In this document: positions 44,551 to 62,761 of the stretch, piece by piece
Layout: the number at the start of each line of letters is the position of its first letter
How positions within the stretch are numbered: position 1 is the stretch's first letter
Assembly (NCBI RefSeq): GCF_029227855.1
Contig: NZ_CP074356.1
Strand: one strand, 5' to 3'
Length of the DNA: 64,000 bases
DNA from: Escherichia coli
Lineage (GTDB): Bacteria; Pseudomonadota; Gammaproteobacteria; Enterobacterales; Enterobacteriaceae
Notes under the pieces: generated by a model
Databases searched by the model: none
What the model was told of the DNA's origin: nothing
The model's input: the letters and a program-made list of their open reading frames with translations, nothing else
Translations under genes and position numbers: made by a program

Positions 44551-44564
44551 TTGATTTATATCAA
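44551..44564. promoter_or_regulatory. FNR-type box (TTGAT-N4-ATCAA) in the cydAB upstream regulatory region
   Basis: Perfect match ttgatttatatcaa about 340 bp upstream of the cydA start, within a long AT-rich leader; cydAB is a known FNR/ArcA-controlled operon. Confidence 0.65.
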
Positions 44565-45018
44565 AACCAACCAAATATGTTAATTGTGTATAAACCATAG
44601 ATCATTGGTGATTTTATTGTTAATTTATTGTGAAATATTTATGCAACACAATTATTACAATGAAAAGGTATAGATAAAAAACCAGTGTTTTATTTAACAG
44701 AACCGCCTTATCCACTTTTTATAATACCAATTGATTAGATTAGCCAATTTGTTGCTATTTTACATAACATATTTTTATCAAAGTTAATTGATTGTTGCGT
44801 TTATGAGCACCGGCCGTAAGCCCGTTATGTTATTGTTTCATTAGTAATAATCACTTAAATGTATCGATGAAACAGGTATGACTTAGCGGGAGTGATTGTT
44901 TCTGAGTGAACAGAGACCACTTTCGCCTGATAAATGAAAAATGAGCGATTTTTGCAAGTTAGTTTTTCTATAGCCGAGTACGCTCAGCGCCTCGCTTGAT
45001 TACAATGAGGTTGCTGCT

Positions 45019-45963
45019 ATGAGTCCTGATAATATCAGTTCTGCTGTCAATCGCTTCTCAGGTTGGCCATCTAATGATCCTCTAAAAACAGATAAAGAAT
45101 CAATGACATCACCCATGACTGTGCAGGTAATAAAGATGATTGCCGCCATCCTTGACCCACATCGGATAGTCGTTGGAATCGATACACTTTATACAACGCA
45201 GCGCGAAACATTTACCTCAGAGAGTCAACAGCTCATTGAATCAGCATTGCAAACACTTCATGTGATGAATTTAAATAACCTGGAAACAAATCTCGATGAG
45301 GAAGGTCACTATCTGGCTTTTGGATATAACGTTGACACTCCTGACAGAATAACCGTTTCTGCTTATAATGAAAAAAAGCCTGGCTGCTATGGCCAATGTC
45401 TTTTAATACAGGATGACGAAACAGACTTATTTAACCTGATAAAAGTTAAAATTTTTGAAGCCAGGCATAATTATGTCGCTCAATTGATGAGCGATCCGGA
45501 ATTTATGTTCAAATTTAGTTATAGCGCTCAACAAAATAGATTAGAACCTCATCTTCTGGTTCCCACTTATTTCCCTCTAAAAACAAACGAACCGGTTACG
45601 CAAGAGGATGTACTGTTACTTTATCGTTTCTTTAAAATGGATGGTGATTTTAATATATTAACATCAGATGAATACATGAGTATCATGACACCTCTAATGA
45701 AGTGTGAGCGTAGCATCCACGACCACAACAGGTATGTGACGGGCAAAGATACCCTTCTTCTGGACTATCCTCCTTCTGGTAACCAGATATATTTCCATAT
45801 TTTTCCTGACGAATCAGCAACACTAGTCCTTTATTTTTCAAACAATGACATTGAATGTTTCGTCTTTGAAAGAGATATTCCGAGCCAGTATCGCTTTTTC
45901 AAAATGTTTACCAATCTGGCACTGGTTATTGATCAGTTAACCGATGCCAATCAAATACTTTAA
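45019..45963 (+). CDS. Hypothetical protein, 314 aa, AT-rich accessory gene; no family recognised
   Basis: A long open frame in DNA that is markedly AT-rich (where chance ORFs of this length are unlikely); polar Ser/Thr/Pro-rich N-terminus (MSPDNISSAVNRFSGWPSNDPLKTDKESMTSP), no signal peptide or transmembrane segment evident. Confidence 0.6.
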   Translation: MSPDNISSAVNRFSGWPSNDPLKTDKESMTSPMTVQVIKMIAAILDPHRIVVGIDTLYTTQRETFTSESQQLIESALQTLHVMNLNNLETNLDEEGHYLAFGYNVDTPDRITVSAYNEKKPGCYGQCLLIQDDETDLFNLIKVKIFEARHNYVAQLMSDPEFMFKFSYSAQQNRLEPHLLVPTYFPLKTNEPVTQEDVLLLYRFFKMDGDFNILTSDEYMSIMTPLMKCERSIHDHNRYVTGKDTLLLDYPPSGNQIYFHIFPDESATLVLYFSNNDIECFVFERDIPSQYRFFKMFTNLALVIDQLTDANQIL

Positions 45964-46043
45964 TTTTTATATATTCCCTGTGGCAAATATTGCTAAACAA
46001 TGCCCGGGGATTAATTTTTATTACTCACGGAAAGATTTAAATA

Positions 46044-46466
46044 ATGATCCCATCTCAAATCTCTTTCAACACCCTTCCTGTCAATGCAACATACGCTTCA
46101 GAGACAACAGTTGACACACAAAAATTCTCTGACATCCTCTACTCAGCGGGGTGTTCCCTAAAGGATCTGGCTTATTTGAGCAGATGTCTGGCATCAATAC
46201 ATCCGACTATCGCCAAAAACATTTATGAAACAGAAAATCTCAGCGATCAAAAATTACTACATATTGATTGCCGTAGTACAAATGAAATCAAGATAAATAT
46301 CTTTTTTGGTCGACAACGAGAAGGATTAATTGAAATTAGTTCTGACACAGTCATTTTTTCGATACTGTCTTCATTGATTGACTCCACCATTTCTAAATTT
46401 CAACACCAAAACCCCGTTAACGGTTCTGTAAATCCTGACCTATTGTATGAGGATTATACTGATTAA
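46044..46466 (+). CDS. Hypothetical protein, 140 aa, AT-rich accessory gene; no family recognised
   Basis: ORF 81 bp downstream of the previous gene on the same strand; predominantly acidic, Ser/Thr-rich N-terminus (MIPSQISFNTLPVNATYASETTVDTQKF). Confidence 0.5.
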   Translation: MIPSQISFNTLPVNATYASETTVDTQKFSDILYSAGCSLKDLAYLSRCLASIHPTIAKNIYETENLSDQKLLHIDCRSTNEIKINIFFGRQREGLIEISSDTVIFSILSSLIDSTISKFQHQNPVNGSVNPDLLYEDYTD

Positions 46467-47013
46467 ATCCCTCCTGTCGCGAAAAATGGCCTGCGTTATT
46501 GCCAGACGTAATAAAACTTTTGATTAACGTTTCTCGTACTGGTAGCACCCTCATGTACTTTTCTTTTTTACGAAAAATCAAAAGAGCTAACAAAGGTCAT
46601 AATTCGCATGAATCATTAATTATTTGTTATTTTCAACATTATTTTTACATTAAGCAGAGATGAATTGCAGTGAAATTCGACTTAACTTTTATGAAATGCA
46701 TTTACTCATGGCTAAAGCCACGTCACAAAAATGCAAATTAGAAGTTGATCACAATTATCTCAATACATCAAATCAAGTTAATTTTAAAAATTTAACATTC
46801 ATGACATCAGTTGACATAACACACTGAATTAAAATGAGAATTTGAAAACACACTTTAAACAATCATTTCCCGAAAGACATTTTGAAAATAGATCAATTGC
46901 AACATTACGGTCAGATAAAGACACTCCTGTGATATTAAACCTGTGCCGTTATGAACGGCCATAAATACGACGTGTGTAACTTATTTTACTCTCTGTCTTA
47001 CAAAGGATTACCC

Positions 47014-47463
47014 ATGAAGAAAGCAACACTTGTGATTGGCGTTATTGGCGCGGACTGCCATGCAGTAGGCAATAAAGTTCTGGACCGCGTTTTTAGCAAC
47101 CATGGCTTCAGAGTCATTAATCTGGGCGTAATGGTCAGCCAGGACGAATATATTGATGCTGCCATTGAAACTGGTGCTGACGCGATTGTCGTCTCCTCTA
47201 TCTATGGGCATGGCGATATCGACTGTCTGGACATGCGCGAACGCTGCATCGAGCGTGGACTGGGGGACATCCTGCTCTATGTGGGCGGTAACCTGGTGGT
47301 CGGAAAACATGACTTCGCTGACGTGGAAACCAAATTCAAAGAGATGGGATTTGATCGCGTCTTTGCCCCAAGTCATGACTTAGAAGATGTTTGTCAGCTG
47401 ATGGCCCACGATATCAACCAACGTCATGACGTTGATACTCGTATTCTTGAAGAGGCAATCTGA
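47014..47463 (+). CDS. Glutamate mutase S (sigma) component, B12-binding subunit (methylaspartate mutase small subunit)
   Basis: From the ATG at 47014 (AAGGAT ribosome-binding site): [62 protein letters not shown]...; the DxHxxG cobalamin-binding motif (DCHAVG) and strong similarity to clostridial GlmS/MutS as I remember it. The ORF-track upstream extension is rejected. Confidence 0.88.
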
Positions 47464-48851
47464 TGCAAATCGTCTCTGTCGATATTGGATCGACGTGGAC
47501 CAAAGCAGCCCTCTTCGCCCGGGAGGGGGACGCGTTAACGTTGGTTAACCACGTACTGACCCCAACCACCCCCCATCATCTGGCGAAGGGGTTTTTCTCC
47601 AGTCTGAACCTGGTGTTAAACGTAGATGATGCCCTCCCCCTGTTTAACAGCGGTGAGGTTGCATTGAAGTATTCCTCCTCTGCCAAAGGTGGGCTGGCGG
47701 TTGCCGCAATGGGATTGGTGCCTTCTATCACCCTGGAAACCGCGAAAGTAACCGCTCACTCTGCGGGGGCTAAAATTGCGCAATATTACGCCTACAAGCT
47801 GAACCGCCGTGATATCCAGGCACTGGAAGAAACGCAGCCCGATATTCTCTTGTTCACCGGCGGCACCGACGGCGGAGAAGAAAGCTACGGCCTGAATAAC
47901 GCCCGTGTGCTGGCAGAATCCAAACTCGACTGCGCCATTATTTATGCCGGAAACCGGGATATTCAGGACAAGGTGCAGGAGATCCTAGGGCATAAAGACC
48001 TGACCATCGTCGACAACGTTCTGCCCGATCTTGACCATCCGAACCCTTTAGCTGCACGCCAGGCTATCTGCGACATATTCCTTAAACGCATCGTTAAAGG
48101 GAAAGGGCTGGATGTCGTTGTTGATAAAACAGGCGAAGAACCAATGCCGACACCGTGGACAGTCTTTGAACTGGTTAAGGCAATCAGTAATGTCGATCAC
48201 AGCTGGAAAGAGTTCATGCTGATCGACATGGGCGGCGCAACCACCGATGTCTATTCCGCCTGTGCCAACACGCTCTCGCCCGACACCGTTTTACACGGCG
48301 TACCGGAACCCTTCGTGAAACGGACGGTGGAAGGCGATCTGGGAATGCGCGTCTCGGCAATGGTGGTTGGTGAAAGTGCGAAAGAGTTAGTCAATGTGAA
48401 TTTTGCTCAGCAACCCGCACAGCTGGACGCTTTTTATCATTACCTCCGTCATCTAGTCGCTCATCCCGACTACTTACCCGCGAATTCAGAAGAAAAATAT
48501 TTCGATACCGTCCTGGCCGGACTGTGTGTGGGTTATGCCACCGAAAGACATGCGGGCACCAAAAAAGAGGTCTGCACCTGCGTCGGCAATGTCGATTTAC
48601 AGATGGGACGTGACCTGACAACCGTGCGTAAAGTCGTCGGATCCGGCGGATGGCTCTCGCGTGCCAGTCAGTTCGATATGCATCACTGGTTGAAATACCG
48701 CAAGTTAAACGACGACGGTAAACGCATTCTCTTACCGACCGAATTTGAATATTACCGCGATTCCCGGGGGCTATTACCATTGCTGGCAAACGTCGCCAGA
48801 GTCGATCCGCTGGCCGCCGCGCGCACCAGTATTCAATGCTTAACCCTATAA
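47463..48851 (+). CDS. Glutamate mutase L component (MutL/GlmL-like accessory/reactivating protein)
   Basis: 462 aa [39 protein letters not shown]... (actin-like ATPase N-terminus); start overlaps the stop of the preceding gene (TGATG); position between the S and E subunits as in clostridial operons. Confidence 0.8.
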   Translation: MQIVSVDIGSTWTKAALFAREGDALTLVNHVLTPTTPHHLAKGFFSSLNLVLNVDDALPLFNSGEVALKYSSSAKGGLAVAAMGLVPSITLETAKVTAHSAGAKIAQYYAYKLNRRDIQALEETQPDILLFTGGTDGGEESYGLNNARVLAESKLDCAIIYAGNRDIQDKVQEILGHKDLTIVDNVLPDLDHPNPLAARQAICDIFLKRIVKGKGLDVVVDKTGEEPMPTPWTVFELVKAISNVDHSWKEFMLIDMGGATTDVYSACANTLSPDTVLHGVPEPFVKRTVEGDLGMRVSAMVVGESAKELVNVNFAQQPAQLDAFYHYLRHLVAHPDYLPANSEEKYFDTVLAGLCVGYATERHAGTKKEVCTCVGNVDLQMGRDLTTVRKVVGSGGWLSRASQFDMHHWLKYRKLNDDGKRILLPTEFEYYRDSRGLLPLLANVARVDPLAAARTSIQCLTL

Positions 48852-48869
48852 CAATTAAGGCTGCAATCA

Positions 48870-50315
48870 ATGGAACTTCGAAATAAGAAATTAACCCATG
48901 ACGAATTCATGACCGAGCGGCAACAGGTACTGAAAACCTGGGAAACCGGCAAGGATGTTGAAAACTTTGAAGATGGCGTTAAATACCAACAAACCATTCC
49001 TGAGCATAAACGCTTCTCTCTTGCGCTGTTGAAAGCAGACAAGGAAGGTAAAACCCTTAGCCAACCGCGCGCAGGTGTGGCGCTGATGGACGAACACATC
49101 GAACTACTGAAAACACTACAAGAAGAGTGCGATCTGCTGCCGAGCACTATCGATGCATATACCCGTCTGAATCGGTACGAAGAAGCGGCTGTAGGGATTA
49201 AAAAATCCATCGAAGCCGGAACCTCTAAACTGAACGGTTTGCCGGTAGTTAACCATGGCGTCGCAGCTTGCCGTCGCCTCACCGAAACCCTGCAAAAACC
49301 GCTACAGATCCGCCACGGCACGCCAGATGCGCGTCTGCTGGCTGAAATCTCGATGTCCAGCGGCTTTACCAGTTACGAAGGCGGCGGCATTTCCTACAAC
49401 ATTCCGTATGCCAAACGCGTAACGCTGGAAAAATCGATCCGCGACTGGCAGTACTGCGACCGTTTAATGGGGATGTATGAAGAACACGGGATCCGCATCA
49501 ACCGCGAACCGTTTGGCCCACTAACAGGTACGCTGATCCCGCCGTTTATCTCGCACTCTATCGCGATAATCGAAGGCTTGCTGGCGCTGGAACAGGGTGT
49601 GAAATCTATCACCGTTGGTTATGGACAGGTCGGCAGCCTGACGCAGGATGTTGCGGCGATCCAGTCTCTGCGTGAACTTGCACACGAATATTTTCAGAGC
49701 TATGGCTATACCGACTATGAATTAAGTACCGTGTTTCACCAGTGGATGGGCGGCTTTCCGGAAGACGAATCGAAAGCGTTCGCTATTATCTCCTGGGGCG
49801 CAGCCGTCGCGGGGATGTCTGGTGCCACCAAAGTCATCACCAAAAGCCCGCACGAAGCCTGGGGTATCCCGACTGCCGCTGCCAACATTCAGGGGCTGAA
49901 AGCCTCCCGCCAGATGCTCAACATGGTCAACGAGCAGAAATTCCCGCCGTGCCCTGCGGTTGAACTGGAAATTGAACTGATTAAGAGCGAGGTTCGCGCG
50001 GTACTGAATAAAGTGTTCGAACTGGGTAATGGTGATATTGCGCGCGGTACGGTGCTGGCATTTGAAGCGGGCGTACTGGATGTGCCGTTTGCGCCAGCCG
50101 CCTGCAACGCGGGCAAAATTCTTCCGGTCCGTGACAACACCGGCGCGATACGCGTACTGGAAGCCGGAGCCGTTCCATTGCCAAAAGATATTCTCGACCT
50201 CCACCACGATTACGTTGCTGAACGCGCACGCTTTGAAGGACGCCAACCGACATTCCAGATGGTTGTAGATGACATCAATGCTGTATCCCACAGTAAATTA
50301 ATAGGAAGACCATAA
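48870..50315 (+). CDS. Glutamate mutase E (epsilon) catalytic subunit (methylaspartate mutase large subunit)
   Basis: 481 aa ORF MELRNKKLTHDEFMTERQQVLKTWETGKDVENFEDGVKYQQTIPEHKRFSLALLKADKEGKTLSQPRAGVALMDEHIELLKTLQ... matching remembered GlmE/MutE. Confidence 0.88.
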   Translation: MELRNKKLTHDEFMTERQQVLKTWETGKDVENFEDGVKYQQTIPEHKRFSLALLKADKEGKTLSQPRAGVALMDEHIELLKTLQEECDLLPSTIDAYTRLNRYEEAAVGIKKSIEAGTSKLNGLPVVNHGVAACRRLTETLQKPLQIRHGTPDARLLAEISMSSGFTSYEGGGISYNIPYAKRVTLEKSIRDWQYCDRLMGMYEEHGIRINREPFGPLTGTLIPPFISHSIAIIEGLLALEQGVKSITVGYGQVGSLTQDVAAIQSLRELAHEYFQSYGYTDYELSTVFHQWMGGFPEDESKAFAIISWGAAVAGMSGATKVITKSPHEAWGIPTAAANIQGLKASRQMLNMVNEQKFPPCPAVELEIELIKSEVRAVLNKVFELGNGDIARGTVLAFEAGVLDVPFAPAACNAGKILPVRDNTGAIRVLEAGAVPLPKDILDLHHDYVAERARFEGRQPTFQMVVDDINAVSHSKLIGRP

Positions 50316-51556
50316 TGAAAATAAAACAGGCCCTTTTTACCGCTGGCTACTCCTCATTCTATTTCGATGACCAGCAGGCGATAAAAAACGGAGCGGGTCA
50401 CGACGGTTTTTTTTATACCGGGGAGCCAGTAACACAGGGGTTTAACGCCGTACGTCAGGCCGGGGAGTGCGTATCGGTACAGTTGATTCTGGAAAACGGC
50501 GCGGTCGCCGTAGGTGACTGTGCTGCCGTACAGTATTCCGGGGCAGGCGGTCGCGATCCACTGTTCCTCGCGGAGCACTTTATTCCGTTCCTCAACGACC
50601 ATATCAAGCCATTACTGGTAGGCCGCGATGTGGATGTTTTCCTGCCGAATGCCCGTTTCTTCGACAAATTGCGTATTGACGGCAACTTGCTGCATACCGC
50701 CGTGCGCTACGGATTATCACAGGCTCTGCTTGATGCTACCGCGCTGGCAACCGGCCGTCTGAAAACTGAAGTGATCTGTGATGAATGGCAGTTGCCACGC
50801 GTGGCGGAATCCATTCCATTATTTGGTCAGAGCGGGGACGATCGATATATCGCCGTCGATAAGATGATCCTTAAGGGCATCGACGTGCTGCCCCATGCGC
50901 TGATTAATAACGTCGAAGAGAAGCTGGGCTTTAAAGGTGAAAAACTGCGCGAATATGTCCGCTGGTTGTCGGATCGCATTCTGAGCAAGCGCACCAGCGC
51001 ACGCTACCACCCAATCCTGCACATCGATGTATACGGCACTATCGGTCTGATCTTCGATATGGATCCGCTTCGCTGTGCGCAATACATCGCCAGCCTGGAA
51101 AAAGAAGCGCAAGGCCTGCCGCTCTACATTGAAGGGCCGGTCGATGCCGGTAACAAGCCCGATCAAATTCGCCTGCTGACCGCGATTACCAAAGAGCTGA
51201 CGCGCCTCGGTTCCGGCGTGAAACTAGTGGCCGATGAATGGTGTAACACCTACCAGGATATTGTTGATTTCACAGATGCCGCCAGTTGCCACATGGTGCA
51301 AATCAAAACCCCGGATCTGGGCAGTATTCACAACATCGTCGATGCAGTTCTTTATTGCAACAGCCACAGCATGGAAGCGTACCAGGGCGGCACCTGCAAT
51401 GAAACTGATGTCAGTGCCCGCACCTGTGTCCACGTCGCCCTTGCCGCTCGCCCCATGCGTATGCTGGTAAAACCAGGGATGGGCTTTGACGAAGGCCTCG
51501 ATATCGTCTTCAACGAAATGAATCGTACTATCGCGCTGTTGCAGGCTAAGGATTAA
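50315..51556 (+). CDS. 3-methylaspartate ammonia-lyase (methylaspartase; enolase superfamily)
   Basis: 413 aa ORF MKIKQALFTAGYSSFYFDDQQAIKNGAGHDGFFYTGEPVTQGFNAVRQAGECVSVQLILENG... with conserved blocks (CAAVQYSGAGGRDPLFLA, QSGDDRY, LPHALINNVEEKLG, HMVQIKTPDLG, AKPGMG) shared with the clostridial enzyme; start overlaps the preceding stop. Confidence 0.9.
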   Translation: MKIKQALFTAGYSSFYFDDQQAIKNGAGHDGFFYTGEPVTQGFNAVRQAGECVSVQLILENGAVAVGDCAAVQYSGAGGRDPLFLAEHFIPFLNDHIKPLLVGRDVDVFLPNARFFDKLRIDGNLLHTAVRYGLSQALLDATALATGRLKTEVICDEWQLPRVAESIPLFGQSGDDRYIAVDKMILKGIDVLPHALINNVEEKLGFKGEKLREYVRWLSDRILSKRTSARYHPILHIDVYGTIGLIFDMDPLRCAQYIASLEKEAQGLPLYIEGPVDAGNKPDQIRLLTAITKELTRLGSGVKLVADEWCNTYQDIVDFTDAASCHMVQIKTPDLGSIHNIVDAVLYCNSHSMEAYQGGTCNETDVSARTCVHVALAARPMRMLVKPGMGFDEGLDIVFNEMNRTIALLQAKD

Positions 51557-51559
51557 CAA

Positions 51560-52930
51560 ATGGCTCGTTCTTTTAAAGTCTTATCGCCAACGGCAATCCT
51601 CGGGTATGGATTCCCGGAAGAGAGCTTCCGCAAAGCGATGGCAGAATCGCCCGATCTGATCGCCGTTGATGCAGGCTCTTCCGATCCTGGCCCCCACTAC
51701 CTCGGGGCGGGCAAACCGTTTACCGATCGCGCAGGGGTCAAGCGCGATCTGCGCTATATGATCACCGCAGGCGTGCAAAATAATATACCGGTGGTGATCG
51801 GAACGGCCGGCGGTTCTGGTGCCGCTCCACACCTGGAGTGGTGCCGAGAAATAATTCATGAGATTGCCCGGGAAGAGCACCTCTCGTTCTCGATGGCGTT
51901 GATCCCGGCAGACGTTGACAAAGCCATCGTCCACCAGGCGCTGGATAACGGCAAAATCACGGCGCTGGAGTTTGTCCCGCCGTTAACCCACGACGCGATT
52001 GACGAAAGTACGTATATCGTTGCGCAAATGGGCATCGAACCCTTCCAGCGGGCGCTGAAAGAAGGCGCGCAAGTGGTGCCGGGCGGGCGCGCTTACGACC
52101 CGGCCTGCTTTGCTGCGCTTCCGATCATGCAAGGCTTTGATGAAGGTCTGGCGCTTCATTGTGGGAAAATCCTTGAATGCGCGGCAATCGCCGCAACGCC
52201 CGGCTCAGGCTCTGACTGTGCGATGGGCATCATTGATGACAACGGCTTTACGCTGAAGACATTTAATCCGAAGCGTAAATTTACCGAAACGTCAGCAGCT
52301 GCACACACACTGTATGAGAAATCCGATCCCTACTTCCTGCCTGGACCTGGCGGCGTGTTGAACCTGAAAGGCTGCACATTTAAAGCGGTCAATGACAGCG
52401 AAGTGTACGTCAGCGGTTCTAAGCATGAAGAAACGCCGTATTCCCTGAAACTGGAAGGTGCGCGACGGGTGGGCTTCCGCTGTCTGACCATCGCAGGAAC
52501 GCGCGACCCGATCATGATCGCCGGGATCGATAAAATCATCGATGAAGTCAAAACCAGCGTTTCGCGTAACCTGTCGCTCGACGATGACAGCATTCACATC
52601 AATTTCCACCTGTACGGCAAAAACGGGGTGATGGGCGACCATGAACCGATGCAAACTGCCGGGCATGAGCTGGGGATTGTCCTAGATGTAGTTGCGCCGA
52701 CCCAGGAAATTGCCAACAGCGTTTGCTCGCTGGTGCGCTCTACTATGCTGCACTACGGCTATGAAAACCGCATCGCTACCGCAGGCAACCTGGCGTTCCC
52801 GTTCTCCCCTTCTGATATCCAGGGCGGGCCGGTATACGAATTTTCCATATATCACCTGATTGAAGCCAACGACGCTCTGCGTTTTGATTTCCATATTGAA
52901 CAGGTGACGCCAGAAGGAGTTCAGGCATGA
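51560..52930 (+). CDS. Conserved hypothetical protein, 456 aa (possibly DUF1446/AtuA-like; assignment from memory, unverified)
   Basis: ORF MARSFKVLSPTAILGYGFPEESFRKAMAESPDLIAVDAGSSDPGPHYLGAGKPF... begins 4 bp after the methylaspartase stop; no catalytic motif I can name. Confidence 0.6.
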   Translation: MARSFKVLSPTAILGYGFPEESFRKAMAESPDLIAVDAGSSDPGPHYLGAGKPFTDRAGVKRDLRYMITAGVQNNIPVVIGTAGGSGAAPHLEWCREIIHEIAREEHLSFSMALIPADVDKAIVHQALDNGKITALEFVPPLTHDAIDESTYIVAQMGIEPFQRALKEGAQVVPGGRAYDPACFAALPIMQGFDEGLALHCGKILECAAIAATPGSGSDCAMGIIDDNGFTLKTFNPKRKFTETSAAAHTLYEKSDPYFLPGPGGVLNLKGCTFKAVNDSEVYVSGSKHEETPYSLKLEGARRVGFRCLTIAGTRDPIMIAGIDKIIDEVKTSVSRNLSLDDDSIHINFHLYGKNGVMGDHEPMQTAGHELGIVLDVVAPTQEIANSVCSLVRSTMLHYGYENRIATAGNLAFPFSPSDIQGGPVYEFSIYHLIEANDALRFDFHIEQVTPEGVQA

Positions 52931-53244
52931 AACAGTCAATTGTCTCACTGGCGCAAGTCATTCGTTCGAAAAATGCCGGACCTTACGAACTGGTTTTAGA
53001 TATTTTATTTAAAACGAAAGAAAACTATGAGCGAGTTAAATCATCAGGGCAATTAACCCCAGAACTGATTGCGCGCTTATATCATGTTGAACCTGACTTT
53101 ATTCACCGTATTGTCTGGTTTGATCCTTCTAACGCAGTAAAAATCGTCATGCCACGAGATATTATCTCCGGGAATGTAGGTGACAATGATGTCTATGGTG
53201 CACAGCAACATGCACCTTTATTAAATATGAGTTTCGATTTGTAA
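52927..53244 (+). CDS. Conserved hypothetical protein, 105 aa (possibly DUF4387-like partner of the preceding gene; unverified)
   Basis: ORF MKQSIVSLAQVIRSKNAGPYELVLDILFKTKENYERVKSSGQLTPELIARLYH...; start codon overlaps the stop of the upstream gene (ATGA), implying translational coupling. Confidence 0.55.
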   Translation: MKQSIVSLAQVIRSKNAGPYELVLDILFKTKENYERVKSSGQLTPELIARLYHVEPDFIHRIVWFDPSNAVKIVMPRDIISGNVGDNDVYGAQQHAPLLNMSFDL

Positions 53245-53404
53245 AAATCCGAATACTTTTAGCCAACTGACATCCCGTCACTTATTGCAGTTCAACACTT
53301 CAGCTATTTGTAAGGTTGTAATAGCAGGTAGATGCCTGAATCTCTATTCAGGCATCTACTTCTCCTGATTCTGATTTATCGCCGTGCACCTGATGGAGGA
53401 AAAA

Positions 53405-54685
53405 ATGAAGAAAATAAGTTTAACCACGATGATTCTTTTGGCGCTGGTACTTGGAATGATTATCGGCGTAGTGCTCAATAACACTGCTTCACCGGAAACC
53501 GCAAAACTCTATGCGCAAGAAATATCGATATTCACGACGATTTTCTTACGACTGATAAAAATGATTATCGCTCCGTTAGTGGTCTCTACCCTGGTGGTAG
53601 GTATAGCTAAAATGGGCGATGCCAAAGCCCTTGGTCGTATTTTTTCTAAAACACTCTTTTTATTTATTTGCGCCTCATTGCTGTCAATTGCCTTAGGCTT
53701 GATAACAGTAAATTTCTTCATGCCAGGCACAGGAATTAATTTTGTTGCACACGGAGCCGAAACCACCGGAGTGGTCGCGTCAGAACCCTTTACGCTAAAA
53801 GTATTTATTTCGCATGCTTTCCCCACCAGCATTGTCGATGCCATGGCGCACAATGAAATTTTGCAAATCGTGGTGTTCTCAATTTTCCTCGGCTGTAGCC
53901 TGACGGCGATTGGCGAGAAAGGCAGCGCCATCGTTCACGCCTTAGATTCGCTGGCACATGCCATGTTAAAGCTCACTGGCTACGTCATGCTCTTCGCTCC
54001 CCTGACCGTATTCGCTGCTATTTCAGCATTGATTGCTGAACGAGGACTGGCAGTTATGGTGAGCGCCGGGATCTTTATGGGTGAATTTTATTTCACCATG
54101 TTATTACTTTGGGTGCTGCTTATCGGTCTGGCCATCGTTTATGTTGGCCCCTGCATCAGACGCCTGACCCGCGCCCTTTCGGAACCCGCCCTGCTGGCAT
54201 TTACCACATCCAGTTCTGAAGCGGCTTTTCCGGGAACGCTTGAAAAACTGGAGCAATTTGGCGTTTCCCCAAAAATTGCCAGTTTTGTCTTACCCATTGG
54301 CTACTCATTTAATCTCGTTGGATCAATGGCCTACTGCTCCTTCGCCACAGTTTTCATCGCCCAGGCCTGCAATATCCATTTATCCATCGGTGAGCAAATC
54401 ACCATGCTGTTGATCCTGATGTTGACCTCGAAAGGAATGGCTGGCGTACCACGCGCCTCAATGGTGGTTATCGCCGCCACGCTCAACCAGTTCAATATTC
54501 CGGAAGCGGGGCTGATCTTGCTGATGGGCGTTGATCCGTTCCTTGATATGGGGCGTTCAGCGACAAACGTCATGAGCAACGCAATGGGCGCTGCGATGGT
54601 GAGTCGGTGGGAAGGCGAACATTTCGGCGAGGGCTGTCGGGGTAAAGCATTAAAACCCAATGAATCGAACGTTGCTCTGCCCTGA
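53405..54685 (+). CDS. Dicarboxylate/amino acid:cation symporter (DAACS family; GltP/DctA-like)
   Basis: From the ATG at 53405 (GGAGGA ribosome-binding site): MKKISLTTMILLALVLGMIIGVVLN... multi-pass membrane protein with DAACS-type layout; substrate not inferable from sequence alone. Confidence 0.8.
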   Translation: MKKISLTTMILLALVLGMIIGVVLNNTASPETAKLYAQEISIFTTIFLRLIKMIIAPLVVSTLVVGIAKMGDAKALGRIFSKTLFLFICASLLSIALGLITVNFFMPGTGINFVAHGAETTGVVASEPFTLKVFISHAFPTSIVDAMAHNEILQIVVFSIFLGCSLTAIGEKGSAIVHALDSLAHAMLKLTGYVMLFAPLTVFAAISALIAERGLAVMVSAGIFMGEFYFTMLLLWVLLIGLAIVYVGPCIRRLTRALSEPALLAFTTSSSEAAFPGTLEKLEQFGVSPKIASFVLPIGYSFNLVGSMAYCSFATVFIAQACNIHLSIGEQITMLLILMLTSKGMAGVPRASMVVIAATLNQFNIPEAGLILLMGVDPFLDMGRSATNVMSNAMGAAMVSRWEGEHFGEGCRGKALKPNESNVALP

Positions 54686-54792
54686 GGGGGATCTTAAGCA
54701 ATCAGAAGCCAATGACTACGCATTTTTATAAGCCGGATCATGAAGTTAGACGGCAATTAAGTAAAACTAACGTTTAAGGTGAAAAGTGAAAT

Positions 54793-56445
54793 ATGTCCAA
54801 ACCATTTATCTGGCAAGAACCGTTTCTACAAAATAAAGACGGTACAGAATATACATTAATTAGCGATCAACATATTACAGTAACGGAATTAGACGGCGAA
54901 GAAGTAATAAAAATCGCTCCTGAAGCATTAACGCTGCTTGCCCGGCAGGCATTTTATGAAGCCTCTTTTTTCTTACGTTCCGCTCATTTGCAACAGGTCG
55001 CCAGCATTCTTAACGATCCGCAGGCCAGTAGTAATGATAAATACGTTGCGTTGCAGTTATTACGTAATGCTGAAGTCTCAGCAAAAGGGGTATTACCCAA
55101 CTGTCAGGATACCGGCACCGCAACTATTGTTGCCAGTAAAGGGCAACAGATATGGACGGGAGGTAACGACGCTGAAGCCTTAAGCAAAGGCATTTACACC
55201 ACTTTTCAGGAAAATAATCTGCGCTTTTCACAAAATGCGCCACTGGATATGTTTACCGAAGTCAATACGCAAACCAATCTCCCGGCGCAGATTGATATCA
55301 GCGCCGTCGCTGGTGATGAGTACCATTTTCTCTGTATTAATAAAGGGGGCGGCTCTGCCAATAAAGCCGCGCTTTATCAGGAAACCAAATCCCTATTGCA
55401 ACCAGAAAAACTGACCGCATTTTTAATCGAAAAAATGAAATCGCTGGGCACCGCTGCCTGCCCGCCTTACCACATCGCCTTTGTCGTCGGAGGACTTTCA
55501 GCCGATCAAACCTTAAAAGTTGCCAAGCTGGCCTCAACGAAATATTACGACAATTTGCCCACCAGCGGAAACGAGCAAGGACAAGCATTCCGTGATATTG
55601 AGCTGGAAAAAGTATTGCTCGAGGCCAGTCAGCAATTTGGTATTGGTGCGCAATTTGGGGGTAAATATTTCGCTCATGATATTCGCGTCATTCGTCTGCC
55701 GCGTCACGGTGGCTCTTGCCCGATAGCTATGGCGCTCTCCTGTTCTGCGGATCGCAATATCAAAGCAAAAATTAACAAGCACGGTATCTGGCTGGAAAAA
55801 CTCGAACACAATCCGGGGCAATATATTCCAGCCTCACTGCGGGAAGAAAATCACGCGCAACATGTACAGCTGGATCTAAACCGTCCGTTGCGTGACGTGA
55901 TGCAGGATCTCGCCAGATTACCGGTAGGCACCCGCGTGTCGTTAAGTGGTCCCATCGTAGTGGCGCGCGATATCGCCCACGCCAAAATAAAAGCGCGGCT
56001 GGATAGCGGCGAACCGATGCCGGATTACCTGAAGCATCATATTGTCTATTACGCTGGCCCGGCGAAAACACCGGAGAACATGGCCTGCGGTTCACTGGGT
56101 CCAACCACGGGCGGTCGAATGGACGGTTATGTCGATACCTTCCAGGCGGTTGGCGGCAGTCTGGTGATGTTATCGAAAGGTCACCGCAGCCAGCAGGTCA
56201 CCGATGCCTGTCACAAACATGGCGGCTTCAATCTGGGAAGTATTGGCGGTGCAGCTGCGTTACTGGCGCAAGAATATGTCAAAAGTCTGCGTTGCCTGGA
56301 ATACCCGGAGCTGGGTATGGAAGCGGTGTGGATGATGGAAGTGGAAAATCTGCCCGCATTCATCCTGGTAGATGATAAAGGCAATAATTTCTTTAGTCAG
56401 TTTGAGCAGCAACACCGCTGCGCCAGTTGCCCTGCGGGACATTAA
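54793..56445 (+). CDS. fumD: Class I (Fe-S) fumarate hydratase paralogue; probable mesaconase/fumarase
   Basis: 550 aa [65 protein letters not shown]... collinear with remembered FumA/FumB (e.g. [41 protein letters not shown] blocks). The symbol is from my recollection of a described O157:H7 paralogue. Confidence 0.85.
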
Positions 56446-56454
56446 GGAAAATGA

Positions 56455-57057
56455 ATGGAAGCGCGAATTTCAACTGAACGGCATGTGCAGCGCCAGCAGA
56501 AATTGAAGGAACAGGTCGATACGCGCATCGCGGCGGCGATAGAGAAAAAAGGGATTTTGATTGTTTTCACCGGCAATGGCAAAGGGAAATCCACTGCCGC
56601 GTTTGGTACTGTGACGCGCGCGGTGGGTCATGGCAAAACGGTGGGGGTTGCGCAGTACATCAAGGGGCAATGGGACAACGGCGAATACAACCTTCTCCAG
56701 CCGCTGGGGGTTGAGTTTCATATTATGGGAACCGGTTTTACCTGGGAGACACAGAACCGGCAAGCGGATATCGACGCGGCGAAAGAGGTCTGGTCGGAAA
56801 GCAAACGGATGCTGGCTGACAAGCGTTACGACTTAGTGGTGCTTGATGAGCTGACCTATATGCTGGCTTACCATTATCTGGATACCGAAGAAGTGATCGC
56901 TTCTCTGCAAAACCGCCCGGCACAACAAAGTGTCATTGTCACCGGACGCGGTTGCCACAGTCAGATATTAAAAATGGCGGATACGGTCAGCGAAATCCGC
57001 CCCGTCAAACATGCTTTTGATAACGGCATTCAGGCGCAGCCGGGTATCGACTGGTAA
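56455..57057 (+). CDS. Cob(I)alamin adenosyltransferase paralogue (CobA/BtuR family)
   Basis: 200 aa ORF with P-loop GNGKGKSTAAFG and blocks shared with E. coli BtuR (RAVGHGK, TGFTWETQNR, LDELTYM, GRGCH, ADTVSE, RPVKHAF). Confidence 0.85.
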   Translation: MEARISTERHVQRQQKLKEQVDTRIAAAIEKKGILIVFTGNGKGKSTAAFGTVTRAVGHGKTVGVAQYIKGQWDNGEYNLLQPLGVEFHIMGTGFTWETQNRQADIDAAKEVWSESKRMLADKRYDLVVLDELTYMLAYHYLDTEEVIASLQNRPAQQSVIVTGRGCHSQILKMADTVSEIRPVKHAFDNGIQAQPGIDW

Positions 57058-57090
57058 TAACTGCGCCTGGCATCCCGCCAGGCGCAGGTT

Positions 57091-57996
57091 TTACATCTCC
57101 TGCGGTACAACCGATTTCGCCAGCAACCATTCACGAAATTGCTGCAAGTGCGGTGAGTCAGACTTCTCTTCCTGCCACGTCATAATAAAACGATTACCGG
57201 TACGAATAGGCACATCACAGGGGATCACCATATCGCCACTATCCAAATCATGTTGAATAGCGAAACGTGGTAACAGCGCCACGCCGAGATTAGAGCGCAC
57301 GGCGGCAATCAGCATTGAAAGCAAATCGAAACGTGGTCCGTTGTTGACCAGTGGACTGCTAACGCCAGATAAAGCAAACCACTCTTCCCAGCCAGTAATA
57401 CGGGTGCTTTGATGCAGAAGTGGTAACTCAGTAAGCAGTTCTGCCACTGACAGTTTTTGATCGGACATTGCAAGCAAACTGCCGCTGCATACCGGCAAAA
57501 TCTCCTCATCAAAGAGATATTCTACTTCCGCCCAGGGCGCGCAAAAATTTTCGCGCATAATGACAGCATCGTACTCCCGATTAAGAAAATCGCCGTTATT
57601 AGCTAAAGAGTGAATATTAACAATAATATCGGGATGTAACTTTGTGAATTCATGTAAATTTGGGATTAACCAGTGGGTACTAAACGTAGGATTCACGGCA
57701 AGTTCAATAACCTGAACCGTAGGCTGCCAGGTCATAATAGTATTGGTATCGCGTTCCAGCTTATTTAATGTTTCTTTTACTATCCCCAGGTAATACTTCC
57801 CTGCATCATTAAGAAAAATACGTTTTTTAGAGTGTGAAAATAACGGAGTATGTAAAAATTCCTCCAGCGCACTCACTTGTCTGAATACAGCACTTTGGGT
57901 TAACGCTAACTCCTCTGCCGCTCTGGTATAACTTTCATAACGTGCGACGACCTCAAAAGTCACCAGCAGCTCCGTTTTAGGTATTTTTCCTCGCAT
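57091..57996 (-). CDS. LysR-family transcriptional regulator
   Basis: Minus ORF with N-terminal helix-turn-helix (LVTFEVVARYESYTRAAEELALTQSAVFRQVSALEEFL) and a LysR substrate-binding domain; start assigned to the Met of MRGKIPKTELL (the ORF track begins 10 codons upstream); start uncertain. Confidence 0.8.
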   Translation of the reverse strand: MRGKIPKTELLVTFEVVARYESYTRAAEELALTQSAVFRQVSALEEFLHTPLFSHSKKRIFLNDAGKYYLGIVKETLNKLERDTNTIMTWQPTVQVIELAVNPTFSTHWLIPNLHEFTKLHPDIIVNIHSLANNGDFLNREYDAVIMRENFCAPWAEVEYLFDEEILPVCSGSLLAMSDQKLSVAELLTELPLLHQSTRITGWEEWFALSGVSSPLVNNGPRFDLLSMLIAAVRSNLGVALLPRFAIQHDLDSGDMVIPCDVPIRTGNRFIMTWQEEKSDSPHLQQFREWLLAKSVVPQEM

Positions 57997-58209
57997 AATT
58001 CCGTCCGTGAAAAAATAACAATTCAAAAATTATTTTATAAAAAACAGTAGCACTAATGAATATCATAATTCAAATAAACAAACCAGTCAGCTATATGTCT
58101 AACCAGGAAAATAAAGTGACAATAATCCTAAAACAGGAATTTCACCTCAGTTATCCGCATGCAATACTTTAAAGCTATTATTGCAAGAATATTATTCATA
58201 TACATGAAT

Positions 58210-58334
58210 ATACTCTAAATAAGTCAAGTTGCAGGAAGGGAACAAATAATGAATTTCCAGAAGCTTACATAAGTAAGTGACCTGAGTGAGCGAACATCGA
58301 TGCAGCACATGCAACTTGAATTATGACAAGTATA
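58210..58334. repeat. Diverged ERIC (IRU) element
   Basis: tatactctaaataagtcaagttgcaggaagg ... agcttacataagtaagtgacctgagtgagcgaac ... gcagcacatgcaacttgaattatgacaagtata aligns along its length with the ERIC copy at 11653-11779, with substitutions. Confidence 0.8.
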
Positions 58335-58585
58335 CAATGATAAATTTATATACCCTATGTTATATATTATCTATGTCCGGTTAAATTGAATGAGTCATGG
58401 CCTTAAAAGACTTCACAAAAGATAATTCCTCTTTAACAATAAGCCAGATTTACCACTTGTAAAACTTGCTATCGCCACATACACTACGCGCGTTTTCTTT
58501 CCCTTTTGCTGGCTGCTGACCGGAAAGACAAAATTACCCTCGCAATACAGGGGGTTGTTTAACGTCTATATTTCAGGACAGCGTT

Positions 58586-59983
58586 ATGCATCATCTTTCA
58601 AGGCTTGATAAAGCCTTTCTGCGCAAAGGGATCCAACTTTCCCGCGCCAACAATATTGTTTCATTATCTCGTCCATCAGGTGCCAGTGCCCGCGTACTGC
58701 TGCCGGACGAACTGCCGCTGGAAGAAAAAGCAGTAACACAACTGCTTGATTTTGCAGAAGTGAAGCTACCAGACCACCCAGGTTATGTGCGCCAGACGTG
58801 CGCGACGCCAGATTTTCATCCCGGCAATGGCGTCCCCGTTGGCGCGGTGGTGGCCTCAACGCCGGATTTAGTCATTCCCGCCGCCATCGGCACCGATATT
58901 TCTTGTGGCATGCGGCTGCTGACGACCGGATTAACACTTGAGCAAGCCGAAGCGCATAAAGACATCATCGCTCAGCGGTTAACGCAAGTGCTGCTGCAAA
59001 ATGAGCGCGATGTTCCGTTATCCGCACAGGCGTTCACTGCGCTTTTTGATGGCGGACCGGCAGATTGCGTGTCGACCTTGCCATCAGCAGGTCTCTGGAC
59101 ACGCACGAATATCCCCCGAATGGTACAAGAGATTGACTGCTGCATTGGGCTTAACGAGCATAACAGTCATTCGCGTTATGCCCCACCCGCCCTGCTGGCA
59201 ACGGACCGCGCATTACTCCGCGATCCTTGTCTGGGTACGCCGGGTTCAGGTAATCATTTTATTGAACTTCAGGTCGTTGATAGCGTGGTTGATCGCCATG
59301 TAGCCTGGCAACAAGGGCTGAAAACAGGCGATATTGTGGTGATGATCCACAGTGGATCGCGAGATGTTGGCTTTTACGTCGGAAGACGCTGGATGGATCG
59401 CGCCCGTGCTGAATGGCCCACCGGACATAAACATCCACAAAGCGGGTTATATGGTCTGGCAGGCGGACTGGCGGAGGAATATCTACAAGCGATAGGAATG
59501 GCTGCGCGTTACGCGTGGTTAAATCGCGTCACAATTGCCGAAATGGTGCGCGTATGTCTCGCCAATCTCTTTCATCAGGACAATTCGCATCTGGTGGTGG
59601 ATGTGCCGCATAACATCATCCTTCGCGAGCATGAAATGAATATTCATCGCAAAGGTGCAACACCGGCACGAGTGGGCGATCTGGCATTAATCCCCGGTTC
59701 AATGGGCGATTATTCGTGGCTTGCAGTCGGTTGCGGCAACCCGGAGTGGCTGTGGTCATGCAGTCACGGAGCAGGACGCAGCCAGCGTCGACAGGCCATG
59801 CGCTCAAGCGCGACTGAAGAGTCAACGCTGCCGTGGCAATGCGTCACATTGCGTGAAGAACGACGTCTTGAAGAAGCGCCAGCGGCTTATAAAGATATTG
59901 GTCCGGTTATCGAAGCCCAACAAGAAGCCGGATTAATTCAACCAGCGGTCAGATTTCGACCGTGGTTAACGTTTAAGGGGTAA
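58586..59983 (+). CDS. RtcB-family protein (RNA 3'-phosphate ligase paralogue), 465 aa
   Basis: ORF with RtcB-like blocks: TPDFHPGNGVPVG, GTDISCGM, GSGNHFIEL, HSGSRDVG, HNIILREHE, SCSHGAGR. No rtcA, rtcR or prfH-like gene adjacent. Confidence 0.8.
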   Translation: MHHLSRLDKAFLRKGIQLSRANNIVSLSRPSGASARVLLPDELPLEEKAVTQLLDFAEVKLPDHPGYVRQTCATPDFHPGNGVPVGAVVASTPDLVIPAAIGTDISCGMRLLTTGLTLEQAEAHKDIIAQRLTQVLLQNERDVPLSAQAFTALFDGGPADCVSTLPSAGLWTRTNIPRMVQEIDCCIGLNEHNSHSRYAPPALLATDRALLRDPCLGTPGSGNHFIELQVVDSVVDRHVAWQQGLKTGDIVVMIHSGSRDVGFYVGRRWMDRARAEWPTGHKHPQSGLYGLAGGLAEEYLQAIGMAARYAWLNRVTIAEMVRVCLANLFHQDNSHLVVDVPHNIILREHEMNIHRKGATPARVGDLALIPGSMGDYSWLAVGCGNPEWLWSCSHGAGRSQRRQAMRSSATEESTLPWQCVTLREERRLEEAPAAYKDIGPVIEAQQEAGLIQPAVRFRPWLTFKG

Positions 59984-60127
59984 CTGAAATGATAAATGGC
60001 CTGCGGTTCTCACGCAGGTCAAATCTGGTATCTGCGTAAGCTAACAAACTTGTTTATCAACAATCTCAGGCCATCCGAAGATGGCCTGAAATTATTGCCC
60101 CCCTTAGATACACTTTTAGCGCAATAA

Positions 60128-62761
60128 TCAGCCAAGGCGGTAGCTAAATGTCCGTGACTGCCCCGGTAAAAATGCCCCCAGTTCCTTTAAATTATCTCTT
60201 TCCGCTGTGCTGATGCTTTCATCCATCATCGTTTGCGTACATGAAATCACCTCACGACTGAACGCGACAGTTGCCTCACAGGTTGTCGATTCTGCCGGAT
60301 TAAACAGTCGCAATACCACTTCTTGCCGGTCTTCCGCTTTTTTAAGAGCGCTAATCAGGCATCCCACAGGGGGCATTTTCAGCAAGCTATAGCTTTCCGG
60401 CACATTGAATCCGGCTTTATTTAACTTCATCGCATCCCACGGGATTTTGTTGTAACACTGTACTGGCGTCAGCCATGCACGCGCCTGCTGGGCTACACCG
60501 GCGGTCGAAGGCGTACCTGTATAACTAAATAAGCTCAGACGGCAGCTAAAGGAGCCACGTAATTGTGAATCGGGCACCGGCATTTTTATACCCGAAGGAC
60601 GTCCAGGCCTTAAAAGCAGATCTTCTTTCCCCAGTAAGCCCACGCCACGCAGCAACGTAATGGCAAAGGTTTTCTTCTCTTCACCGATGACTTCGAATTC
60701 ACGTAGCCCTTCGCTAAAGACAGCCAGACCGTTACGCCCTTCCTGTAAGGCAGCATAGTTGAGCATATTCCATACCGGAACAGGCGCTTCTTTCCAGCCT
60801 TCTTGTTGCCAGACATCCATCGCACTGTCGCTCACCGGGCGCGTTAGCGAACCAAACTGGGTATCGGCCAGAACATTGTCGGTGTTGAAAGGTGTAGGGA
60901 CCAGGACGCGAAGGCGATGATCGTCAGCCTGGTTATCAAGGTTGATAACCACATCAATGCGCCTGCTGTTATCACTCAGAGTGACAACCAACTCCACCCC
61001 TACTCTACCCGTGCATTGCCGTGCGCTGCGTTCTTGTAGATTACGCGGCACCGCCATGTCATAGCGGATAACAGCCCTGCTCTGCCAGGCCTCATGAATA
61101 ATCTCGCATTGCGGTTTCGCATTCGCCGAAGTAATTACCCACTCTTCTTTTGCAGGTGAATAGTCATATTCATCACCATCATCAGAGCTTTCTTCAATTT
61201 GCAATACCCGGTCATAGCGCACACCGCTGTCTTTATCTACCAGTTGTAGCGTTCCATCCTCATTGAGCGCAATTTGCCAGAAAGCATTTTCCAGTATCCC
61301 TTCAGCGTCACTTTTTGCCGCAATCACGTTGCCAGGCTGATTCGTTTCGATATAAAGCGTGCGATAGCCCATAGAAGGGACAATCTGGTTGATCTGAATA
61401 TCAAACTCCATAAAGGGATCGTAATTACCGTAATGAACGATTTGCCGATCGATTAGGCCAGGATCGATCTCACGGGCATGGCGAATAAAATACGGTACAG
61501 GCTGACCGCGATCGTCCCGCAAATTAAACTGGCTAGCGCGCAGCCGCACAGTGGTGTTGATCACTTCTTCCCGCGGCCAGGGCATCAGGTTAAACAGCAC
61601 AAGTTTGTCGGCATCACTCTGTGGCATGTTATCGGCAATTTTGCGCATGTAGAAACGAATCAGATTATCCGCCATGTCTTCAGCCAGTTCGAAGCGGGCG
61701 ACGATTTCGCGATGAACTTTGTCACTGCAACAACAACCGATACTGTCGTGGGCATGATTTTTTAAGATCTCTTTCCACATTTTCTCCAGCAAGCCGTGGT
61801 GGTATTCAAAACCTAAAGTCCAGGCCAGTGTTGCCAGCGGTTCCAGCAGATTAACAATCTTATTTTCAATACGCGCGTGGGCAATTTTGATATCCATGCG
61901 CGTGGAACCGATGGTGCGATGCACGCGCATATATTTGCCATCGATAAATTCACCTTTCAGAGTCGCCAGATTATCTCGCTGCGCTTCAATCTGCTCGAAT
62001 ACCTCTTCAAAGCGGCTCATCACAAACTTTCGTTGAGGATAAATTTCGCGAAGTTTCTCCATCACTTCGAAGATATTTTGCTGCAATGGCATCTGATCAT
62101 GACCATTCGGCAATAAAATTTCTTTGGTTACTGACGCTTTTTCCAGCACGTCAAAATAACTGTCGAGACGTTTGCGTAATCCGTCTTCGTCGGCAGGTAA
62201 GTACTTACCGATGGCGTAGCCCAGCGGCAGCACCTGCGCCGTCACTTCGCTACCATCACTGCTTTGCCACAAAAACTCGGTTTTATCAGTACCGTGGCGC
62301 TCAGAACATCCGCGCCAGAACATGGTGCGGGTAATGCCAAATCCATTGTAAATATGCGGCAGTTGCTCGGACATGCCAAAGGAATCTGGTAAATAACCTA
62401 TTTTCATCGGCTCGCCAAACGCGAGGCAGTCACGCATTCCGTACATCAGATTACGGACGATGGATTCCGCAGAAACAATCGTGGTATCGGTCTGGGTATA
62501 CCAGGGGCCGATAATCAACTTACCGGCTTCTACCAGTTTCTTCACGCGCTCTTTGTTTTCCGGTTTCACCGCGAAATAATCTTCGAGGATCGCCGTTTGC
62601 CCGTCGAGTACGTAATATTTGTATTCGTTGTCCTGTTCCAGTCGGCGCAGGATCTCTTCCATATTATTGACCAGCAGAATGCGTGACTCTTCGGTGGTGA
62701 AATACCACTCCCGATCCCAGTGCATATGCGGGGTGATGTGAACGCGAGATACCGCTTTCAT
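60128..62761 (-). CDS. mngB: Alpha-mannosidase MngB (mannosylglycerate hydrolase; GH38)
   Basis: 877 aa [47 protein letters not shown]... matching MngB. Confidence 0.95.

Follow-up and report, generated by a model that had tools for sequence, protein, structure and literature searches.

A mesaconase gene and an island-borne gene of the CobA adenosyltransferase family at the end of a probable methylaspartate-pathway operon in Escherichia coli

The adenosyltransferases PduO (pdu), EutT (eut) and MMAB (methylmalonyl-CoA mutase) are extra enzymes of their kind, each produced together with an enzyme that depends on B12 and with the reactivase of that enzyme, despite the presence of a housekeeping CobA. 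Here we examine an apparent case of the same operon logic in a 64,000-nt stretch of Escherichia coli DNA (hereafter, the window), in which a class I fumarase gene, fumD, is directly followed by an adenosyltransferase gene, cobA (54793-57057, the feature under study). The part of the reactivase is taken by GlmL, but the adenosyltransferase of this locus belongs to the CobA type, a family unrelated to PduO, EutT and MMAB.

The closest described system is that of E. coli O157:H7, the fumarase of which (ECs0757, also ECATCC700728_0849) was named FumD and purified anoxically by Kronen & Berg (PLoS One 2015; PMC4682846). The enzyme is oxygen-labile, being inactive when purified aerobically and active if handled anoxically, and its catalytic efficiency (kcat/Km) is 2x10^6 M-1 s-1 with mesaconate versus 7.5x10^5 M-1 s-1 with fumarate, at Km values of 0.15 mM and 0.9 mM, respectively (PMC4682846). 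That paper also found mesaconate to be a substrate of FumA and FumB, with 4% and 19% of the efficiency that they show with fumarate. The legend of Figure 5 in the same paper lists GltP, FumD, CobA (cob(I)alamin adenosyltransferase) and a LysR regulator; the cluster was found in 26.5% of E. coli strains and in 90.6% of O157:H7 strains, and the fate of citramalate was left open (PMC4682846). A literature search with locus tags of the island genes (ECs0756, ECs0757, ECs0761, ECs0762, Z0895 and Z0896) retrieved the 2015 paper only. The central claim, that this fumarase paralogue is a mesaconase, is thus already known, tested and published, and CobA has already been drawn beside FumD.

Compared with these systems, the window locus holds no new principle and is a correctly read, already explained example. 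We consider it very likely that the pair consists of fumD and an island-borne cobA, that they form the final two cistrons of a chromosomal operon, optional in the species, for glutamate breakdown along the methylaspartate route, and that CobA supplies the coenzyme of the mutase. The elements of the pair, with the open reading frames (ORFs) taken from the ORF list, are the following.

54793..56445, plus strand: fumD, 550 aa, ATG start
56446..56454, plus strand: fumD-cobA spacer, 9 nt; the AAGGA Shine-Dalgarno sequence overlaps the fumD TAA stop codon (56443-56445)
56455..57057, plus strand: cobA/cobO paralogue, 200 aa, ATG start
57061..57087, plus strand: predicted terminator-like hairpin of 11 bp (9 G-C pairs) with a trailing GTTTT, between cobA and the convergent LysR gene

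The initial annotation of this DNA had given the same coordinates for the two ORFs, which match the ORF list exactly, and had placed the adenosyltransferase start 10 bp past the fumarase stop and the pair in the vicinity of the mutase genes. All this agrees with the sequence: the junction reads ...GGA CAT TAA GGAAAATGA ATG GAA..., with the cobA ATG beginning at the 10th base past the fumD stop, and glmS, glmL and glmE lie upstream on the same strand. The Sakai locus is the same locus with the same gene, the same neighbours (gltP-like, cobA and LysR genes) and an identical fumD-cobA junction, from which the window differs by nine substitutions in FumD, by the cydA/mngB context of the island and by an extra RtcB-family gene.

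The 550-aa protein is a single-chain class I fumarase. It scores 1281 bits with the NCBIfam equivalog NF011921 'class I fumarate hydratase' (cut-off 1060), and falls under the cut-offs of the FumA model NF011919 (924 bits, cut-off 1105) and of the related model NF011920 (919 bits, cut-off 1094). Both Pfam domains of the family are present in the one chain, namely, Fumerase (PF05681; residues 50-325, E 1.4e-74) and Fumerase_C (PF05683; residues 331-536, E 2e-77). The protein is 68% identical to FumA and 67% identical to FumB of K-12, which are 90% identical to each other. In 5425 of the 5426 complete E. coli genomes fumA and fumB are present (at a median of two places each). That the source strain has the housekeeping fumA, fumB and btuR is presumed from their occurrence in >99.9% of the complete E. 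coli genomes. FumD shares with FumA and FumB the fold, the domain pair, the length of ~548-550 aa, the cluster cysteines (C105, C224 and C318 of FumA) and the catalytic residues, but is an accessory protein in E. coli, whereas FumA and FumB are core. The description of this gene as a third class I fumarase is therefore well founded. Judging from the family-model scores above cut-off and the Pfam domain matches, here and in the downstream gene, the two ORFs are not reading frames open by chance.

The structure of the Leishmania class I fumarate hydratase (FH) aligns to residues 18-536 of FumD with 704 bits. At the 13 positions that we take to be the cluster ligands and active-site residues of the Leishmania enzyme, with the alignment offset checked on the CQD motif, all 13 residues are kept in FumD and in all 43 aligned cluster-linked orthologues (in FumD, C104, C223 and C317, Q105, D106, R144, G187, H305, R392, T438, T439, R442 and K462). 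Beyond this common core, 17 positions are near-invariant in the cluster-linked FumD clade and differ from the residue shared by FumA and FumB. Among these are Ala to Gly replacements at position 440, next to the catalytic Thr438/Thr439, and at position 307, next to His305; as a hypothesis only, the smaller side chains could accommodate the mesaconate methyl group.

FumD of the window is identical to ECs0757 at 541 of the 550 residues (98.4%), with nine substitutions. The initial annotation had argued that class I fumarases hydrate mesaconate, which holds for FumA and FumB (PMC4682846), and hence that this paralogue is the mesaconase of the pathway; the published kinetics of ECs0757 confirm the assignment for the nearly identical allele. 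The comparison of mesaconate with fumarate as substrates of the purified paralogue, which had been proposed as a check, was already published in 2015 for that allele, and mesaconate is preferred (PMC4682846).

The window allele has its own peculiarities. Codon 464 of fumD (56182-56184) encodes His instead of Asn (N464H), within the KGNRS motif and two residues past the catalytic Lys462. Asn occupies this position in all 42 other close orthologues, in FumA, FumB and Leishmania FH, and also in the distant cluster-linked fumarases of Alphaproteobacteria, Acidobacteria and Aminicenantes, and of the 1121 E. coli genomes with the island, just one has an exact match to a 61-mer spanning the codon. 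The Y154F substitution (codon 154) is likewise private among the orthologues. N464H is either a private, strain-specific mutation or a sequencing or assembly error; being private at an invariant position, it implies that the published kinetics may not transfer exactly to the window allele.

The second gene encodes a CobA/BtuR-type adenosyltransferase. The 200-aa protein scores above the cut-offs of NF004637 (296 bits, cut-off 185) and TIGR00708 cobA (246.6 bits, cut-off 167.75) and matches Pfam CobA_CobO_BtuR (PF02572) with E 6e-64. Its identity amounts to 68% with Salmonella CobA (PDB 1G5R/4HUT) and to 67% with K-12 BtuR; it belongs to the same family as these (PF02572, TIGR00708), has the same length and aligns with them in full. 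In the alignment to 1G5R, the P-loop is kept (FTGNGKGKST versus FTGNGKGKTT, that is, GNGKGK(S/T)), and so is the GFTW motif (GTGFTWETQN versus ATGFTWETQN). By positions counted on this alignment, the latter includes Phe91 and Trp93, presumably the pair of Salmonella CobA that forms four-coordinate cob(II)alamin. The protein differs from Sakai ECs0756 at 1 of the 200 residues. The housekeeping gene, btuR, is present in 5422 of the 5426 complete E. coli genomes, in agreement with the view that the island gene encodes a second enzyme of this type. Unlike btuR, which adjoins yciK, the island cobA is found in ~21% of the genomes, in a predicted catabolic operon where it appears to be translationally coupled to a hydro-lyase gene.

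Both genes of the pair evolve under purifying selection. The ratio of nonsynonymous to synonymous substitution rates (dN/dS) lies between 0.06 and 0.08 for cobA and between 0.04 and 0.13 for fumD, values like those of mal and glmE; two values, for fumD of Escherichia sp. MOD1-EC7003 and glmE of Salmonella enterica subsp. arizonae, were dropped as artefacts because in-frame stops had shifted the codon register. None of the 36 copies of cobA contains an in-frame stop. The purifying selection argues that the product of the island cobA is functional.

To place the pair in a broader context, 80 loci from different species were fetched with mal as the query and the island proteins were mapped onto them; the counts that follow come from the 64 mal-centred loci with full flanks. 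A glmE gene is present in 63 of the 64, a gene of the AtuA family directly after mal in 52, and a class I fumarase gene in 41. The fumarase and cobA genes are adjacent in 31 loci and the fumarase occurs without cobA in 10, whereas cobA without the fumarase is found in none. Class I fumarase genes beside mal and glmS/glmE extend to Alphaproteobacteria, Acidobacteria and Aminicenantes. The pair of AtuA-family and DUF4387 genes after mal reaches Acidobacteria, Aminicenantes, Halobacteroidaceae and Burkholderiales, a linkage that is tighter than that of the fumarase.

The fumD-cobA junction itself is conserved. TAAGGAG-N5-ATG, with the 9-nt spacer, is present in 29 of the 36 orthologous loci (one per species), and the five bases preceding the ATG vary freely, as would be expected if a signal for translational coupling were conserved. 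Directly 3' of cobA, the 57061-57087 hairpin is the top-ranked terminator-like site across 44200-60200 and is the probable end of the operon. Because of the conserved 9-nt spacer with its TAAGGAG overlap of the stop codon and of the terminator-like hairpin that follows cobA, co-transcription of the two genes appears well supported.

The pair also moves as a unit. In four Yersinia species (loci L044, L046, L047 and L048), it is located upstream of glmS, on the opposite strand and on the other side of the cluster, and the two genes are still adjacent. Neighbour-joining trees of the fumarase and of CobA contain the same three groups, namely, a core of Escherichia, Citrobacter, Klebsiella, Salmonella and Enterobacter, a group of Yokenella and Enterobacter sp. 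ENT03, and Yersinia; these trees were midpoint-rooted, without bootstrap and without the housekeeping FumA and BtuR of other genera, and were used for congruent grouping only. The Yersinia fumarase is 71-74% identical to E. coli FumA and FumB versus 69-70% to FumD of the window, and the Yersinia CobA is 67-72% identical to BtuR versus 63-66% to CobA of the window.

The pair resides in an insertion of ~15.5 kb (44585-60124) between cydA and mngB that is absent from K-12. The DNA of the pair is 100% identical to that of JNEC-KY178 and 95-99.7% identical to 1121 other records, and the pair is present in 1121 of the 5426 complete E. coli genomes (~21%). The genes that accompany it in the island are listed below.

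45019-45963 (314 aa) and 46044-46466 (140 aa), plus strand: two low-GC hypothetical genes
47014..47463, plus strand: glmS, B12-binding subunit S of glutamate (methylaspartate) mutase; RefSeq annotation, 98.7% identical to ECs0764
47463..48851, plus strand: glmL/mutL, accessory (reactivating) protein of the mutase; RefSeq annotation, role from the Figure 4 legend of PMC4682846
48870..50315, plus strand: glmE, catalytic subunit E of glutamate mutase; RefSeq annotation and comparison with Sakai
50315..51556, plus strand: mal, methylaspartate ammonia-lyase; RefSeq annotation and comparison with Sakai
51560..52930, plus strand: AtuA-family (DUF1446) gene, the match to CmlA (PDB 9ERQ/9EVF chain A, 962 bits over residues 1-456; Pfam AtuA)
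52927..53244, plus strand: DUF4387 gene, the match to CmlB (PDB 9ERQ/9EVF chain B, 193 bits; Pfam DUF4387)
53405..54685, plus strand: gltP-like dicarboxylate/amino acid:cation symporter; RefSeq annotation, GltP and DctA models matched below cut-off, labelled GltP in Figure 5 of PMC4682846
57091..57996, minus strand: LysR-family regulator, convergent with cobA; RefSeq annotation and family search
58586-59983, plus strand: RtcB-family gene, 465 aa

From glmS to cobA (47014-57057), the nine genes glmS-glmL-glmE-mal-cmlA-cmlB-gltP-fumD-cobA are encoded on one strand, with overlaps or gaps of no more than 18 nt at the junctions; only two of the gaps are longer, at 160 and 107 nt. The counterpart of this row in O157:H7 Sakai is ECs0755-ECs0767, and the position of fumD, 3.2 kb downstream of mal on the same strand, is repeated in Sakai and in ~40 other species. 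The row contains the complete set for the methylaspartate pathway, in that glmS, glmE, glmL and mal are accompanied by the genes for a mesaconase and a citramalate lyase. The last of these deserves comment. RefSeq names the two genes at 51560-52930 and 52927-53244 by family only, and we had considered them an unexplained novelty until they were matched to PDB 9ERQ/9EVF, the chains of which are deposited as "Citramalate lyase, subunit A (cmlA)" and "subunit B (cmlB)". CmlAB has been used as a citramalate lyase in a preprint (bioRxiv 10.64898/2026.01.16.699985). The assignment rests on the names of the PDB entries and on this one preprint using the enzyme; a search for DUF4387/DUF1446 and for a primary CmlAB paper found none in the literature covered. 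With CmlAB as a lyase shown to exist, the citramalate step left open in 2015 now appears settled.

Given this gene complement, glutamate, presumed to be imported by the GltP-like symporter, would be converted to (2S,3S)-3-methylaspartate by GlmS/GlmE, the adenosylcobalamin-dependent mutase that GlmL would reactivate. Mal would remove ammonia to yield mesaconate, FumD, as an oxygen-sensitive 4Fe-4S hydro-lyase, would hydrate mesaconate to (S)-citramalate, and CmlAB would cleave citramalate to pyruvate and acetate. CobA, translated off the same mRNA right after FumD, would adenosylate salvaged cob(I)alamin, or cobalamin released by the reactivase, such that the coenzyme would be made, or re-made after inactivation of the mutase, whenever the mutase is expressed. 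The LysR gene at 57091-57996 is a candidate regulator of the cluster.

The clostridial cluster glmS-mutL-glmE-mal-mesAB-citDEF has in common with the island the logic of the pathway and the genes for the mutase, the reactivase and the ammonia-lyase. The enzymes that follow are different: clostridia use MesAB, a class I mesaconase of two subunits (PMC4682846), whereas the mesaconase of the island is single-chain and FumA-like, and the clostridial citramalate lyase is the citrate-lyase-like CitDEF (PMC4682846), in contrast to the unrelated AtuA/DUF4387 CmlAB. Furthermore, the clostridial clusters in Figure 4 of PMC4682846 list no CobA, whereas the island has one.

Several observations weigh against the proposed operon and the roles assigned within it, and we consider them together with the alternatives that they favour. 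At the level of expression, an Rfam search of 44000-60300 at E <= 1 detected no cobalamin riboswitch and no other element, and a sigma-70 promoter scan returned 22 sites versus 24 expected from shuffles, with none within the gltP-fumD or cmlB-gltP gaps, and is uninformative.

The alternative that survives best is that the island cobA is a redundant passenger, inherited together with fumD from a donor, and that the housekeeping BtuR supplies all the adenosylcobalamin of the mutase. Indeed, btuR is present in virtually all E. coli, and the cluster lacks cobA in five enterobacterial species (E. whittamii, Escherichia sp. E1V33, Pseudescherichia vulneris, Escherichia sp. ESNIH1 and UBA7338), in which fumD, next to the mutase genes, has the LysR gene right behind it; furthermore, neither fumD nor cobA was found within 10 kb of the cluster in Morganella and Hafnia. 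A literature search on corrinoid adenosyltransferases in connection with glutamate mutase or a BtuR paralogue found no experiment on the island CobA. However, a passenger would be less expected to show dN/dS values as low as those of mal and glmE, to be free of in-frame stops across 36 species, to keep the Shine-Dalgarno/stop overlap and the 9-nt spacing while the adjacent spacer bases drift, and to stay with fumD through the Yersinia rearrangement. An analogy points in the same direction: Salmonella, as is generally known, retains PduO and EutT besides CobA. On balance, a passenger cobA seems somewhat unlikely to us. That island CobA is the dedicated supplier of adenosylcobalamin to the mutase is plausible; because the five species keep fumD beside the mutase genes without cobA, the gene is probably helpful rather than essential. 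In Morganella morganii (L053, 1454-6044), the mutase cluster is located directly downstream of cobalamin-biosynthesis genes, an arrangement without a cluster cobA that fits the link to B12. The Morganella genes upstream encode uroporphyrinogen-III methyltransferase, CobD and a precorrin-2 dehydrogenase-like protein, and nirB (nitrite reductase) comes after gltP.

A broader possibility is that the whole cluster, fumD and cobA included, is cryptic in E. coli, that is, carried, unused and decaying. E. coli, as is generally known, lacks de novo B12 synthesis, and N464H in the window is private at an invariant residue. In strain ATCC 700728, neither expression nor methylaspartate ammonia-lyase activity was detected, and no anaerobic growth on glutamate was seen (PMC4682846). 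Single in-frame stops also occur sporadically, at codon 15 of fumD in Escherichia sp. MOD1-EC7003 (L010, 14478-16127), codon 24 of glmE in S. enterica subsp. arizonae (L043, 8556-9998) and codon 397 of glmL in E. whittamii (L069, 7149-8534), and reflect either sporadic pseudogenisation or sequencing errors. Such decay is hard to reconcile with the state of the pair in the species as a whole, given that all 1122 records that contain it show at least 80% query coverage at no less than 95% identity, and that dN/dS between the window and Sakai is far below 1 (fumD 0.13, cobA 0.06, mal 0.08, glmE 0.03). In addition, earlier work cited in PMC4682846 found methylaspartate ammonia-lyase activity widely among enterobacteria. 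We therefore regard a cryptic cluster as improbable and infer that the pathway can operate in E. coli.

Finally, it is most improbable that FumD serves in practice as one more fumarase isoenzyme, for instance under a certain redox or host condition, and has no mesaconase role in vivo. In favour of this reading, the Vmax is higher with fumarate than with mesaconate (671 versus 292 U/mg; PMC4682846), the preference for mesaconate by kcat/Km is just ~2.7-fold, and mesaconate hydration is shared by FumA and FumB, but the six-fold lower Km for mesaconate, the fumarase genes beside mal and glmS/glmE in most loci, distant phyla included, the genes for the preceding (mal) and following (cmlAB) steps in the same row, and the fact that fumA, fumB and fumC already are core genes all speak for the mesaconase.

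Some features of the island and its relatives stand apart from these questions. The two hypothetical genes at 45019-45963 and 46044-46466 form the cydA-side edge of the island in a stretch of 37% GC, have no NCBIfam matches, and are 94% identical to their Sakai counterparts, compared with 98-100% elsewhere in the island; of the 80 related loci, only one contains them, a contig of a metagenome-assembled genome (MAG), near-identical to E. coli. The Sakai island (L006, 21515-35160) borders on sucD, in a context without mngR-mngA-mngB, whereas the window (44585-62761) has mngB and mngA, with the island located between mngB and cydA. The RtcB-family gene is absent from the Sakai island, the alignment of which to the window stops at 58014; RtcB models match residues ~214-464 of its product only, below their cut-offs, and the N-terminal ~210 residues are unmatched. 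A LysR gene is linked to the cluster in 42 of the 80 loci and is directly divergent from glmS in Paludibacterium and Azoarcus. In most of the Citrobacter, Klebsiella, Enterobacter and Salmonella loci, a glutaminase A gene (e.g. L018, 14677-15678) is located between gltP and fumD, in agreement with Figure 5 of PMC4682846; this gene is absent from the E. coli island. In two MAG contigs, L007 (labelled Collinsella sp.) and L008 (Citrobacter sp.), the cluster shows 98-100% protein identity to that of E. coli, and these contigs are probably mis-binned E. coli DNA.

The locus provides about one-fifth of E. coli strains, including most of O157:H7, with genes for the B12-dependent conversion of glutamate to pyruvate and acetate. 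It is conceivable, although we think it rather unlikely, that the island CobA is specialised for the mutase, for example, by re-adenosylating cob(II)alamin that GlmL releases from inactivated GlmS and handing the coenzyme straight back, or by accepting the non-cobalamin corrinoids that are common in the gut; to our knowledge, direct hand-off of the cofactor is known for PduO-type enzymes and MMAB, not for the CobA type. If either were the case, the island enzyme would be a CobA-family counterpart of PduO, EutT and MMAB. As a separate and equally unlikely possibility, Gly440 and Gly307 of FumD could be the determinants that shift a class I fumarase towards mesaconate. More generally, the route from glutamate encoded by this island could matter for growth in the gut.

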